Below, in pieces: positions 1 to 6,000 of a stretch of 64,000 bases of DNA. Position numbers: made by a program. How positions within the stretch are numbered: position 1 is the stretch's first letter; the number at the start of each line of letters is the position of its first letter. Source of the stretch: Escherichia coli (GTDB lineage: Bacteria; Pseudomonadota; Gammaproteobacteria; Enterobacterales; Enterobacteriaceae); the NCBI RefSeq assembly GCF_003018115.1, contig NZ_CP027457.1; one strand, written 5' to 3'.

Positions 1-3000
1 CGCCGTTGATCCGGAGTCTCCTGAATCGTTCATGAGGCGGCCTAAACGTCGCCGTTGGGTTAATGAGAAATACACGCGCTGGGTAAAGACACAGCCGTGT
101 GCGTGTTGTGGTAAGCCAGCTGACGATCCACATCACCTGATTGGTCATGGTCAGGGGAGAGAGGGAACAAAGGCCCACGATATTTTCACGCTACCGTTGT
201 GCCGGGAGCACCACAACGAACTTCATGCAGACCCGCTGAAGTTTGAGAAAAAGTACGGCTCTCAGATTGAGTTAATTTTTCGTTTTCTTGATCACGCCTT
301 TGCGACTGGCGTGCTCGGGTAAAAGAGGTGACTGATGCTCATAGATTTGGTTTTACCTTACCCGCCGACGGTGAACACTTACTGGCGACGCCGTGGCAGC
401 ACATATTTTGTATCAAAAGCCGGGGAGCGTTATCGCCGGGCAGTGGCGCTTATTGTTCGCCAGCAGCGACTGAAATTAAGCCTGTCCGGACGGCTGGCAA
501 TAAAAATTATTGCAGAGCCACCGGATAAGCGCCGCCGTGACCTGGACAATATTCTGAAAGCACCGCTGGATGCGCTGACGCACGCGGGGTTGTTAATGGA
601 CGATGAGCAGTTTGATGAAATCAATATTGTACGTGGCAAGCCAGTATCTGGTGGACGGCTGGAGATAATAATTACAGAGGTGGGTGTGCATGAATAACCA
701 GTATTTACAGTTTGTTCGTGAGCAACTCATGATTGCCACTGCGGATCTTAGTGGGTCGACAAAAGGCCAGCTGGAAGTCTGGCAGGAAAATGCCCTGTTC
801 GATACAGGGCGTTACAGACGCAAAAAAATTCGTTACCGCGATGAGGTAACCGGAAAAATGATCACGCGGGATAATCCCCCGATCCCGGGTAAACAATCAC
901 TGGCGAAAGGCTCATCAATTGCCCTGGTCAGTCCGGTTGAGTTTTCGACATCATCATGGCGACGCGCCGTTCTGTCTCTTGAAGAACATCATAAAGCCTG
1001 GCTGCTGTGGTGTTACAGCGGTAGCATTTGCTGGGAGCATCAGATCGCGATAACGCAGTGGGCGTGGACTGAATTTAATGCTCAATCCGGTACCAGAAAA
1101 ATTGCAGGAAAAACTCTGGTGCGCCTGAAGACGTTGATCTGGTTGGCGGCGCAGGCGGTAAAAGCTGAGCTTTTTGGTGGGGAAGGTTACGAATACCAGG
1201 AACTGGCGTTACTGGTGGGAGTAACAACCAAAAACTGGTCCAAGACATTTACTGGTCACTGGGTTGCAATGAAACACATTTTTCATCGGCTGGATAGTGA
1301 AGCTTTATTGTTGGTGGAGGGAACACGTTCAAAACAAAAGGCGGCATTTTCATAGCAAAGTATTGCAAAAGTAGATAAAAAGGCATATATTTCGTGTAAA
1401 TCTGATATTTTGCCGTTATTATACGTGATGGCAAAGCCACTAAAACCCGTGACCGAGCGGGTTTTTTACCCCCCAAAAAATGGCATAGACATTAAACGTG
1501 ATGACGATTGTGCCAATACTTTCTCCATCAATGACGCCCCTTGACTGCATGGAATCCAATTTGTTATGTAATGTGTGTTGATATTTTTGAGTTGTTAATG
1601 GTGTTACTATGGATGACAGTGCTCTGCTCAGAAACTCTTCACTTTTTGTTGCTTATATGGGCTGTCTCGGATGGGGGAGCGCTTATTTCTATGGATGGGG
1701 TACTTCATTTTACTATGGCTTTCCATGGTGGGTTGTCGGGGCTGGTGTCGATGATGTAGCACGAAGTTTGTTTTATGCTGTGACAGTTATTGTTATATTC
1801 CTTATTGGATGGGGAGTTGGTATTGTTTTCTTTTTGGGCATAAAACAAAAGCGCAATATACAAAATTTGAGTTTTATCCGGCTTTTTCTCGCGATATTGC
1901 TGCTTTTTATTCCACCTGTTCTGGAGTTTTCTGTAATTCATCAGCATGTTGAGCCAGATGTACTGATTTTCTGCGTTCTTGCTGCCTTTGCAATCACGCT
2001 TTTTGTCAGGTCTGGAAGAAGACTTGTTTCAGTCAAATGTTTTTCGGAAATGTCTGTTATTCGCCATCACCGAATTGAGTTCATGATGGCTGGGTTTATG
2101 ATTTATTTCTGGGCATTCTCTCTTATTGCCGGTTGGTACAAACCACAGTTTAAGAGGGAATATCAGGCGGTCCACTATGAGAATGTATGGTATTACATTA
2201 TTGCGCGCTATGATGATCGTCTGGTGTTATCGAAATCATACAGGAGTGGGGGTAAGAAATTCGTTATATTTAATAGCGGAAATATTAATGATTTTGAAAT
2301 TAATACTGTCAGAGTACGTTAAAATTTCCTGAGTAATAAAGATTTTACTGCCCGGCATTGAGCGGTTTTTTTATGCCAGAAAAATGGTGCAGTACATAAA
2401 ATGTGCAGGTGGTTATTAATACCGGTCTTTCAGCTTGCTGGCTTTTTTGACAAGAGTTATTGGTGTGTCACGTTAACCGGAAAAGGGAAAAAGACATGCT
2501 GAAACAGCAGGATATGACAGAAACCGCCAGAGCAGTTTTTAATGAATTAAGTGCCACCGAACCGGCGACAGTCGGGGAGATTGCACAGAATACTTACCTT
2601 TCACGCGAACGCTGTCAGTTAATACTGACCCAGCTTGTTATGGCGGGTCTGGCAGACTATCAGTTCGGTTGTTACAGACGCCTTCAGTCCTGAAGGCTTT
2701 TTTATTTGTGGTAAATGGGCGGCTGGTGGGTGTTAGGGCACTCACCAGCCATCTGCTCATGCGTTGGGGTCACAAGCAAACCTCAGGCCCATCTGCTTTG
2801 CGCAAAAGCGGTATGAGCCTATCAGAGACAGGCTTAATGATCCACGTTTAATACTGTAAAAATATCCAGTTGTGAGTTAATCAACGCTGATTGCCTGGAA
2901 TTTATCCAGACCTTACCGGAAAACTCTGTCGATCTGATAGTCACAGACCCGCCGTACTTTAAAGTGAAGCCTGAGGGCTGGGATAACCAGTGGACGGGTG

Positions 3001-6000
3001 ATGAGGATTACCTGAAATGGCTGGACCAGTGTCTGGCGCAGTTCTGGCGGGTGCTGAAACCTGCCGGAAGTCTTTACCTGTTCTGTGGCCATCGCCTGGC
3101 ATCTGACATTGAAATCATGATGCGTGAACGCTTCAGTGTGCTGAACCATATTATCTGGGCGAAGCCGTCCGGACGCTGGAACGGGTGCAACAAGGAAAGC
3201 CTGAGGGCGTATTTCCCCGCCACAGAGCGCATTCTGTTCGCGGAACATTATCAGGGGCCGTATCGTCCGAAAGATGCCGGGTATGAGGCGAAGGGCAGGG
3301 CACAGAAACAGCATGTGATGGCACCGCTGATTGCTTACTTTCGTGATGCGCGTGCTGCCCTGGGGATAACGGCAAAACAGATTGCTGATGCCACAGGAAA
3401 GAAAAACATGGTGTCGCACTGGTTCAGTGCCAGTCAGTGGCAGCTACCGAACGAAAGCGATTATCTGAAATTACAGGCGCTGTTTGCCCGGGTGGCAGAA
3501 GAGAAGCATCAGCGCGGTGAACTGGAAAAGCCCCACCACCAGCTGCTGGAGACGTATACTTCACTGAACCGGCAGTATGCGGAACTGCAGAGTGAATATA
3601 AGCATCTGCGGCGGTATTTTGGCGTGACGGCGCAGGTGCCGTACACGGATGTGTGGACGCATAAACCGGTGCAGTACTATCCCGGGAAACATCCGTGCGA
3701 AAAACCGGCAGAAATGCTGCAGCAGATAATCAGCGCGAGCAGTCGTCCGGGGGACCTGGTTGCAGATTTTTTCATGGGGTCGGGTTCGACAGTCAAAGCC
3801 GCGATGGCGCTGGGGCGTCGTGCAACTGGCGTTGAGCTGGAGACTGAACGTTTTGAGCAGACGGTCAGGGAAGTTCAGGATTTAGTCAGTCAGAACGGAT
3901 GATATTGCAGGATTAGTTACGTACCGTTATTATCCTGCGCCGGCCCTTTAGCTCAGTGGTGAGAGCGAGCGACTCATAATCGCCAGGTCGCTGGTTCAAA
4001 TCCAGCAAGGGCCACCATATCACATACCGCCATTAGCTCATCGGGATAGAGCGCCAGCCTTCGAAGCTGGCTGCGCGGGGTTCGAGTCCTCGATGGCGGT
4101 CCATTATCTGCATTATGCGTTGTTGGTTCTGATGAGTGAATCATTGTCTTTTGAGCAACAGGCTATCATATAAGATAGCCTCAGACTTCCTTGTTTATTC
4201 TCGCCGGATGCTTCGTAGATATTTGCAGGCATCTGTATGCAGGGGTATTATTGCGGCATATATCATCCGGAAAAATAAAAACCACATGCTGATCCGGAGA
4301 TGATAGTTACAAGTCCTCCCGGATCCCGCATATTTACTATATTTTATAGATAATTGTTCTTGTTAATATGGAGATGGATAAATGTATTGCCGTGCTGTAC
4401 CGGTTCTTGTTTTGATATTAGCTAGTCTGACAACTGGCTGCACAAAAGATGTATCGACAAATAATTATGATGCTTCTCTGTATCACTCAGATAAATTAAT
4501 AAAGTCGCAAAATTTGAGCTCATCGGAACGTACCCCTGATGCCAGTGAAGAAATCCGGCAGTATGCCATTCAGGTCAGGAAAGCCATAGAAGAACAGTTA
4601 AAGGATGCGAGTAAGTATTCAGGAAAAGAGTGTTCACTGAGAATGTATATGGCCCCGAATGGTCTTCTGCTACAGGTTAAAAGAGAAAGCGGTGATCCCG
4701 ATTTATGTCGTGAAGCGATGAATGCAGTAAAGAATGCTGATATACCATCACCACCGTCTTCAGGAGTATATAAAGTATTTAGAAATGGCGTGCTGGATTT
4801 TAAACTCTGACAGGGGGAGAAGATTTTCTCCTGTCCTGATGATTTTGGGGCGCTGGAAAGATATTGTGCTGTGAAGTGTTAAATCCCTCACAATTCAGTA
4901 AGTTGACAGTTGCCTGTCAGACTGAGCATTTGTTAAAAAAATTTCGCATGGTGAATCCCCCTGTGCGGAGGGGCGACTGGTGAACGGTATGATCTCTTTG
5001 ATGATCGTAAGCGAGAATACGCGGGTTTGGTGTCACCGGGCTGAACTCACCGGGAGGCACCCGGCACCATGCTCATGGTGATACAGAAATGCGGCTTCAG
5101 CCCCTCTCCGGAGGGGCTTTCTTATGGACAAAAAAAGCCCGCGCTGGGAGACGCGGGCGGCAAGGAATAAACAATAAAACGTGAAGTAATACTTCAACTG
5201 GCGAATAATACCCGACAGTAATCACTCTGCGCAATAGCGTGGCCTTTTTCGAATTGCGGGCTGTAGTCTCCCTTCTGCCGGGTGTCCTGGTTGCAGATTT
5301 CTTCATGGGGTAGGGTTCGGCAGTTAAAGCAGCGATGGCGCTGGGGCGTCGTGCAACTGGCGTTGAGCTGGATACCGGGCGTTTTGAACAGACTGCGCAG
5401 GAAATCAGGGATGTATTTAGCGGGAGCGGTTTGCAGAAGTAATCTCCCAAAATGCCATTTTTGGAATATACTGGTATTAAGTCTTTTTGCTCAGGTTAAT
5501 TCAAAATGGATGTTGCCTGCTCTGTGGTCCTGATTCGCTATCCGATAGATATTTTTCTTGAAAAAGAAAAAGTTTCACTCGATGCCGGAAGTGTTATGCT
5601 TGTTGCCAGAAATATAAGAGGGCTTTTCTGTGCTTATGCCGACAGAGTGAAAATGGCAGATATAAGTAACAGCGTCGTCAATCAGTATCTGGAAAGGGTG
5701 TGTGAACTGACGGAGTATACACCGACAAAAATGCCTCTTTATTTGATGTCTGATATTTACAATACGGAACTGGCGGAGGCTTTAATAACCCAGCATAGTG
5801 AATCCAGTGATACTTTGAAGGATTTCTCTGTTATAACCGCATTTTCATGTATCTCCTTATTTGCAACAGACAGGCGTCTGCCATTATTTTTGTCCGGTGC
5901 TGTAAATAATATCAGCTGTAAAGTAAGGGCTATAATTCAGACTGACATATCGGCAGGCTGGATGCTAGGTGTGATTGCATTACAATTGCATATGAGCGAA

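Follow-up and report, generated by a model that had tools for sequence, protein, structure and literature searches.

A T-to-C transition removed the ATG start codon of an M.EcoGII-family DNA methyltransferase gene in an Escherichia coli lambdoid prophage

How can an apparently complete gene lack a start codon? This question is raised by a DNA methyltransferase (methylase) gene in a 64,000-nucleotide stretch of Escherichia coli DNA (NCBI RefSeq assembly GCF_003018115.1, contig NZ_CP027457.1), referred to here as the window and numbered from its first letter. The window begins in the nin region of a lambdoid prophage at ompW, in which Q, RusA, lysis, terminase, head, and tail genes are present. 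A first-pass annotation of the window had offered three causes for the missing start, namely an unusual initiation codon, damage to the N terminus, or a sequence error. It had also linked the methylase to a small upstream protein as parts of a possible epigenetic switch.

The methylase gene lost its start codon by a single transition

The features of the methylase gene are as follows.

2844-2846, + strand: mutated start codon, ACG instead of the ATG of relatives (T-to-C at 2845).
2844-3902, + strand: coding sequence of an M.EcoGII-family beta-class N6-adenine DNA methyltransferase, 352 codons, intact but for the first codon.
2862-2864, + strand: ATA codon used as start by the Prokaryotic Genome Annotation Pipeline (PGAP) in a near-identical genome, giving a 346-amino acid product (WP_136807759.1).
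2946-2957, + strand: catalytic DPPY motif (motif IV), residues 35-38, invariant in the family alignment.
3765-3785, + strand: S-adenosylmethionine-binding DFFMGSG (FxGxG, motif I), residues 308-314, whose C-terminal place gives the beta-class order.

The upstream frame is closed by a TGA at 2838-2840, from where the methylase frame is open (2841) until a stop at 3900-3902; its translation includes ...LINADCLEFIQTLPENSVDLIVTDPPYF... None of the 35 in-frame codons ahead of DPPY is ATG, GTG, or TTG, and the earliest classical start in this frame, GTG 2964, lies past the catalytic motif. The sequence thus confirms what the first-pass annotation had described for this frame. TTG 2870 and GTG 2872 are out of the methylase frame, and each is followed within two codons by a stop. 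We rejected a frameshift placing either of them in frame, because alignment with relatives reveals no indel at this place.

Over the methylase module, the window has matches in 255 phage records and in more than 2,400 complete E. coli genomes. We aligned the window with the close relatives O178:H19 2012C-4431, MDP9-27, Stx2a phage Stx2_EH1910, phage 1720a-02, prophage PPyecE_EH1910, and an Stx2c phage. The sequence context in these relatives is the same save for one base, which makes codon 2844-2846 ATG in the relatives versus ACG in the window. With the ATG restored, the methylase open reading frame (ORF) comprises 352 codons and starts with MFNTVKISSCELINADCLEF.

The ATG is retained far beyond these relatives. 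Over 91 loci, 80 of which are IMG/VR viral contigs, the start codon is ATG in 88 and ACG in two (the window and its near-clone E. coli 07-4299), and one locus has a rearranged 5' end. The IMG/VR scan returned only close relatives (94-99%), which served for start-codon counts and are unsuited to covariation analysis. A 61-mer centered on the start matches complete E. coli genomes exactly in 152 records when it carries ATG and in one record when it carries ACG, so that the ACG context occurs in one of 5,426 complete genomes. The band counts of both searches fit a non-C base in essentially all other copies. Relatives from Salmonella, Klebsiella, Pantoea, Citrobacter, Kluyvera, Buttiauxella, Mangrovibacter, Providencia, and Morganella have ATG at the same position. 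Exceptions beyond the window lineage are a probable prophage remnant (L094) and the rearranged locus (L045). In the former, from Enterobacter sp. Bisph1 (NZ_JXAG01000050.1, ~2839-2856), AAG stands in place of the family ATG, which is another start loss. The leader and methylase of this locus lie directly 3' of the 3' end of host icd, suggesting a prophage remnant.

The absence of a start in the window is not a matter of chance; it comes down to a single substitution against a very large family with ATG at that position. Among the three causes proposed earlier, damage to the N terminus is therefore the correct one: the ancestral ATG at 2844-2846 became ACG by one T-to-C change, whereas an unusual initiation codon lacks support and a sequence error is unlikely, as detailed below.

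The methylase belongs to the M.EcoGII/M.EcoGI family

The encoded protein matches Pfam N6_N4_Mtase (E 3.3e-43), with the match split around a central insert of ~125 residues. Residues D308, F309, F310, G312, S313, and G314 of motif I are invariant in the family alignment. The closest relatives in the PDB are beta-class enzymes, among them M.RsrI, CcrM, and M.MboIIA, and a search of NCBIfam gave only sub-cutoff matches to other adenine methyltransferase families.

By BLASTP, 324 of 349 residues (93%) are identical between M.EcoGII and the window protein, where the M.EcoGII sequence is a machine-read copy from Table S1 of PMC11551740 that possibly contains a few character-recognition errors. The N terminus of recombinant M.EcoGII, MLNTVKISSCELINADCLEF (MLNTVKISSCE...), aligns residue for residue with (T)FNTVKISSCELINADCLEF of the window, and its first codon coincides with the codon that is ACG in the window. 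The methylase of phage 1720a-02 is 97% identical to that of the window at the nucleotide level.

The family of M.EcoGII is very large among E. coli prophages, and a very similar methylase is carried by phage 1720a-02 (PMC5778455). The enzyme methylates adenine in all sequence contexts; M.EcoGI and M.EcoGII are unexpressed in the lysogen, and their constitutive expression is deleterious (PMC5778455). Reconstructed ancestors of the M.EcoGII clade retain the non-specific activity (PMC11551740). Judged by its sequence, the window methylase is a member of this already known and characterized family, and at 93% identity, the window copy would probably have shared the non-specific N6-adenine methylation activity.

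The window copy resembles M.EcoGII and M.EcoGI, described from a prophage of E. coli O104:H4 C227-11 (Murray et al. 2018, PMC5778455), in its N terminus except for the first codon and in the order of DPPY, target-recognition domain (TRD), and FxGxG. It also shares the location in a lambdoid prophage and the orphan status of this family. Indeed, as the first-pass annotation had stated, no restriction gene adjoins the methylase, the neighbors being Q, a membrane protein, a small ORF, and two tRNAs. Functional members of the family possess an ATG at the conserved N terminus, which is missing in the window. In contrast to M.EcoGII, the window copy has the ACG start, a C-terminal tail that is three residues longer (...LVSQNG), and ~25 substitutions, several of them in TRD helices.

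The ACG codon probably abolishes or strongly reduces expression

In E. coli, the canonical start codons AUG, GUG, and UUG give 10-100% of AUG initiation, AUA, AUC, AUU, and CUG give about 1-2%, and the remaining codons, including ACG, give 0.1-1% in a strong expression system (bioRxiv 10.1101/063800). We found no Shine-Dalgarno sequence ahead of the native methylase start (2844). Because neither a Shine-Dalgarno sequence nor another canonical start precedes DPPY, translation is expected to fall.

We propose that a normal methylase gene of this family would be silent in the lysogen. During lytic growth, Q-modified RNA polymerase would read through the terminator ahead of the gene, and the methylase would be transcribed only then. 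The enzyme would then methylate the phage DNA broadly and shield it from restriction that is sensitive to adenine methylation. For lytic-only expression and restriction protection, we draw on the lambda late operon and on the silence of M.EcoGI and M.EcoGII in lysogens, from which we infer the same timing here. In the window lineage, the one T-to-C transition at 2845 that turned ATG into ACG would then have lowered translation of functional enzyme to ~1% or less of normal.

Overall, we are confident that the gene is a prophage gene of the M.EcoGII/M.EcoGI family whose start was lost by a T-to-C change, and that the result is most likely a null or strongly hypomorphic allele, the latter with a knock-down of more than 100-fold. 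Several points weigh against this explanation. ACG does initiate at a low level in E. coli, with an N-terminal methionine (bioRxiv 10.1101/063800). M.EcoGII is very active, so the allele may fall short of a null, with some residual methylation after induction. In PGAP, the ORF is treated as a live gene that starts at ATA 2862. The remaining ORF is without further damage, which implies that the mutation must be recent. Finally, the 25 differences from M.EcoGII cluster partly in the target-recognition helices (residues ~233-255).

The PGAP coding sequence at 6463-7503 of the near-clone locus (L001, NZ_CP027462.1) corresponds to 2862-3902 of the window. No Shine-Dalgarno-like sequence was seen ahead of ATA 2862, and this start looks like an annotation fallback rather than evidence of use. 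RefSeq thus carries the allele as a live 346-residue protein from ATA, an annotation that is probably an artifact. By itself, the start loss matters little: a private allele knocks out, or strongly knocks down, one gene of a family that is biochemically characterized and sold as a reagent (EcoGII). The window lysogen and strain MDP9-27, which has the ATG and a 352-residue protein identical to that of the window, constitute a near-isogenic pair from nature that differs in the start codon (ACG versus ATG) but not in the protein, and with which the role of the methylase during induction could be tested.

Sister alleles and other explanations for the start loss

The closest sisters of the window allele are six records that are at least 99.7% identical to it. 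Four of these (O178:H19 2012C-4431 and three others) are annotated with two coding sequences for the methylase. In 2012C-4431 (L002, NZ_CP024289.1), the split is due to a G3019A nonsense change (W59*, TGG to TGA), and the ATG is kept. From the identical split annotation, we infer the same W59* in the other three records. The allele clade contains two independent knock-outs, W59* being the second. Among the alleles of at least 99.7% identity, the ORF has just four variable sites, two of which are the knock-outs (ATG-to-ACG and W59*).

This pattern raises the possibility that loss of the methylase was positively selected in this prophage lineage, in which leaky expression would be toxic, and that the start loss is adaptive rather than neutral decay. 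A random substitution has a ~4.6% chance of being a knock-out, which gives P ~0.012 for at least two of four sites, a post hoc value that rests on four sites picked after the data had been seen. The deleterious effect of the constitutive enzyme speaks for such selection as well. However, the four W59* genomes may be one clone, and the wider family is overwhelmingly intact, with ATG in 88 of 91 loci and an ORF of 348-359 codons in all but one of them. We therefore regard selected loss as unlikely, although it fares best among the alternatives.

A second alternative is that the gene is functional by design and that a non-canonical start (ACG 2844, ATA 2862, ATC 2880, or CTG 2895) keeps the toxic enzyme at a very low level. 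Near-cognate codons do lie in frame ahead of DPPY, one of them (ATA 2862) is accepted by PGAP, non-AUG initiation is measurable in E. coli (bioRxiv 10.1101/063800), and a low level would be tolerable given that constitutive M.EcoGII is deleterious. Against this stand the restriction of the allele to one lineage (one of 5,426 complete genomes), the ATG in front of the same protein in the closest sister, the ATG kept in nearly all homologues from E. coli to Providencia and Morganella (exceptions L094 and L045), and the missing Shine-Dalgarno-like sequence before ATA 2862. The unusual initiation codon of the first-pass annotation is thus quite improbable.

Still less credible is a sequencing or assembly error that hides a true ATG. 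The difference is confined to one base in an otherwise intact ORF that matches an ATG allele at all other positions, as would fit an error. Yet the same C at 2845 is present in NZ_CP027462.1, which differs from the window at two positions over 9,950 aligned bases and hence is a separate assembly; matching substitution errors in two assemblies are improbable.

A terminator-like hairpin and a conserved leader precede the methylase gene

The region between the upstream small ORF and the methylase contains two features.

2680-2697 (stem) and 2698-2707 (T-run), + strand: intrinsic-terminator-like hairpin with T-run; its 3' arm contains the TGA (2691-2693) that ends the small ORF.
2694-2843, + strand: conserved non-coding leader of 150 nucleotides from the small-ORF stop to the methylase start, with a 21-mer at 2714-2734, a hairpin at 2721-2750, and two helix sets.

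The terminator-like hairpin consists of GCCTTCAG-TCC?-CTGAAGGC followed by TTTTTTATTT, with a 7-bp stem (four GC pairs) and a 4-nucleotide loop. It is the sole terminator-like site on the + strand within 1300-4400. Across genera, the hairpin is kept with differing stems (GCCTTCAG/CTGAAGGC, GCCTCC/GGGGGC, CTCC/GGAG, and CCTCGC/GCGGGG), even where the small ORF is absent, and the T-run is weaker outside E. coli. The hairpin presumably works as a terminator.

Wherever a genus has the small ORF, the end of this ORF is built into the hairpin: its last codons supply the 5' arm, and its stop falls within the loop or the 3' arm. Ribosomes that complete the small ORF would thus cover the hairpin, and read-through could in this way be coupled to translation of the ORF. 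A promoter-like TTGACA at 2448 was discarded, as it is not conserved in the related loci L003, L005, and L006. A scan for consensus promoters found six promoter-like sites compared with 5.1 in shuffled sequence, and we make no promoter claim.

The arrangement resembles lambdoid late control (Q, pR', tR', and StxS of Stx phage Sp5; PMC7547250) in that the module comes directly after Q and is followed by the tRNA/stx position, and in that Q-modified polymerase would need to pass a terminator at the start of the module. In Sp5, by contrast, the small ORF and the leader have given way to a Q933-pR'-StxS-tR' cassette, and so has the methylase except for its 3' end. StxS/tR' of Sp5 was considered as a homologue of the terminator and leader and rejected, because the shared sequence is limited to the remnant of the methylase 3' end and the tRNAs.

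The leader is found upstream of all M.EcoGII-family methylase genes that we examined, from Escherichia to Providencia and Morganella. Its 21-mer AATGGGCGGCTGGTGGGTGTT (2714-2734) occurs exactly in 29 loci of a collection with one genome per species, 28 of them from Enterobacterales and one a chance match, and the search pattern used for the leaders forced this 21-mer to be invariant. Where retained, the methylase ATG of the family is located 129-134 nucleotides downstream of the 21-mer. The leader is 147-150 nucleotides long in most genera and 143 nucleotides in Providencia. At the nucleotide level, the leaders of most other genera are 75-81% identical to that of the window (67% for Providencia), compared with 70-74% (63%) for the methylase gene. 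The leader is thus at least as conserved as the flanking genes.

A 60-residue TTG ORF (2669-2851) that overlaps the leader was rejected as coding, since indels of 1-2 nucleotides among homologues break its frame. We consider the leader to be non-coding because such indels break any reading frame.

For the window leader, the minimum free energy is -78.5 kcal/mol (z = -4.65). Two helix sets can be drawn. In set A, 2707-2711 pairs with 2770-2774 and 2715-2720 with 2755-2760, forming a long composite stem stacked on the hairpin 2721-2750. Within this set, 98.9% of cells pair, compared with 27-44% when the partner columns are slid, and the variation is mostly of the G-C/G-U and A-U/G-U type, changes that only the mRNA strand tolerates. 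In set B, 2754-2761 and 2771-2778 form a local hairpin. Its closing pair 2754/2778 covaries (CG 18, AU 5, UA 4, and UG 1), and none of 500 shuffles reached its score. The two sets compete for GCUCAU (2755-2760) and are mutually exclusive. In an unbiased analysis of column pairs, covariation in the leader is mostly clade-linked (Morganellaceae versus the rest), and only 2754/2778 shows three Watson-Crick types spread among Enterobacteriaceae.

Rfam 15 gave no match at E<=1 in 2400-2900 when positions 1-9000 were scanned as 9 kb, and a scan of the 501 bases 2400-2900 returned only sub-threshold hits at chance level (best 18 bits versus a gathering score of 36).

From conservation and predicted pairing, the leader is a candidate regulatory RNA. 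It is conceivable, albeit doubtful, that it represents an undescribed cis-acting RNA regulator that acts as a gate, at translation or at read-through, for an adenine methyltransferase that is both toxic and non-specific. The leader together with the hairpin offers a testable candidate for the control by which phages silence a genome-wide adenine methylase in the lysogen and turn it on during the lytic cycle. The conserved leader is the sole element at this locus that might repay further work.

The small upstream protein is a generic winged helix with no support for kinship to PapI/FaeA

The small ORF ahead of the hairpin encodes the following protein.

2496-2693, + strand: 65-amino acid stand-alone winged-helix protein (phrog_331, E 2.8e-37), named "TrmB family transcriptional regulator" or "hypothetical protein" by PGAP.

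PGAP annotates the same ORF (2496-2693) in the near-identical genome. Its product had been given as 66 residues in the first-pass annotation; it has 65, and the ORF does end inside the terminator as stated. We collected 345 homologues with 80-98% identity across Enterobacterales, for which the usual PGAP name is "TrmB family transcriptional regulator." Matches to Pfam are weak (TrmB with E 7e-4, HTH_24, DprA_WH, and MarR_2, up to E 6e-3), and there is no NCBIfam model for the protein. An AlphaFold2 model based on 40 homologues (predicted local distance difference test score of 90) displays an H-H-H-beta-beta topology, that is, three helices and a beta-hairpin. The best structural matches of this model are IclR N-domains, Zalpha, ArsR, and SelB winged helices. 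Compared with the N-domains of IclR, ArsR, MarR, and TrmB and with Zalpha and SelB, the protein stands alone with 65 residues and has no effector or dimerization domain. The model is structurally close to the RNA- and Z-nucleic-acid-binding domains of SelB and Zalpha, and the protein could be a trans-acting partner of the leader.

The resemblance to PapI/FaeA that had been proposed for this protein holds for the winged helix and not for the family. Like PapI/FaeA (PF04703; 2HTJ), the protein is a small winged helix (65-77 residues), and 25 residues of the helix-turn-helix align in register. This likeness is not accompanied by significant similarity of sequence or profile, and PapI is not a preferred structural match. 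Pfam FaeA (PF04703) is not found at E<=10 among the eight domains listed for the protein, and phmmer against the PDB did not return PapI. Alignment of the 40-sequence profile with PapI by hhalign, using a PapI sequence verified against 2HTJ, gave a probability of 1.1% and an E of 0.047 over 25 helix-turn-helix columns. The ORF also differs in lying in a phage late region instead of a fimbrial operon, with no Dam/Lrp logic evident.

Moreover, the small ORF and the methylase can occur apart from each other. Roughly one-third of the cross-genus loci possess the hairpin, leader, and methylase without the small ORF, and phage phiSTEC1575-Stx2k carries the small ORF without the methylase. The small protein is therefore separate from the methylase and widely conserved, often but not always alongside it, and is not a PapI/FaeA homologue.

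The idea that a PapI/FaeA-type protein and the adenine methylase together form a methylation-dependent epigenetic (phase-variation) switch deserves next to no credence: PapI is likewise a small winged helix (~70-77 residues; 2HTJ) and the winged-helix ORF frequently adjoins the methylase, but the absent Pfam FaeA match and the profile probability of 1.1% speak against the homology, a terminator separates the two genes, each is found without the other, no fimbrial operon is in the context, and the switch is implausible because the enzyme family is non-specific and unexpressed in lysogens and so cannot write a heritable site pattern.

Neighboring genes and cargo around the methylase module

The neighboring features on both sides of the module are listed below.

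684-1355, + strand: Q antiterminator gene (phrog_304 "anti-termination protein Q-like," E 1.9e-106; annotated as Q by PGAP in the near-identical genome), at the head of the late operon.
1609-2322, + strand: gene for a predicted multi-pass membrane protein of 237 amino acids (phrog_1521, unknown function), between Q and the module.
3942-4017, + strand: tRNA with CAT anticodon (ileZ-type; tRNA-Ile by PGAP, tRNA-Met by ARAGORN), directly after the methylase.
4027-4103, + strand: tRNA-Arg (TCG), after tRNA(CAT).
5278-5393, + strand: degenerate 3' end of a second methylase, 89.7% identical to 3747-3862; PGAP pseudogene "DNA methyltransferase, missing N-terminus."

In the window, the elements are arranged in the order Q, membrane protein, small ORF, hairpin, leader, methylase, tRNA(CAT), tRNA-Arg, and cargo. 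The order Q, (small ORF), hairpin, leader, methylase, and lysis genes or cargo is common to E. coli, Salmonella, Klebsiella, and Pantoea. In the Salmonella, Klebsiella, and Pantoea prophages, the Q genes upstream of the module encode proteins of three different Pfam families, and the lysis genes follow downstream of it.

Phage 1720a-02 and the Stx2a phage Stx2_EH1910, whose methylase has 352 residues, are 97-98% identical to the window at the nucleotide level from the small ORF through the tRNA and carry the module at the same place downstream of Q. They differ in the ATG start and in stx2, which follows the module. In the window, the place of stx is taken by STnc100 repeats together with a tolA-like and an AraC-like gene, and the gene for the 237-residue membrane protein is inserted between Q and the module. 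The latter gene is absent from this place in related phages, where the small ORF follows directly after Q (L003-L005) and homology begins at ~2400-2408. The same gap between Q and the small ORF is occupied by a HicAB toxin-antitoxin pair in Salmonella (L010) and by two unrelated genes in Klebsiella (L011), and it seems to be a hot spot for cargo insertion.

Directly downstream of the methylase, the first bases of tRNA(CAT) (3942-3949) differ between the window/07-4299 lineage and the closest sisters (L002 and L009) by three substitutions and one indel within 8 nucleotides, a pattern that would indicate a different tRNA allele or a recombination boundary right after the methylase. The degenerate methylase copy at 5278-5393 marks a recombination joint that flanks cargo placed where stx sits in Stx phages. 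In the Stx phage VT2-Sakai, the same methylase 3' fragment is all that remains of the gene and lies directly after the StxS terminator. The methylase 3' end thus appears to be a recurrent recombination joint at which Q/pR' cassettes and cargo are swapped.

At the position of stx2AB, the window harbors genes for a 142-residue TolA C-terminal-like lipoprotein (4382-4810) and a 241-residue AraC-type helix-turn-helix regulator (5506-6231), which are possible alternative lysogenic-conversion cargo. Five copies of STnc100, a prophage small RNA family (RF02076, 119-172 bits), are tandemly scattered in the cargo on the + strand (4917-5129, 6889-7084, 7148-7357, 7419-7617, and 7679-7868), upstream of a nanS-like esterase gene. 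A 2026 preprint ties STnc100/PasD to exactly that esterase neighborhood.

In the Klebsiella michiganensis prophage (L011, DAPQJI010000017.1), the strand opposite to the module carries an AcrVA2-like gene that adjoins a gene with a Cas1 domain (4643-6080). This pair is located ~1-2.5 kb downstream of the methylase module, which ends at 3580 of that locus.

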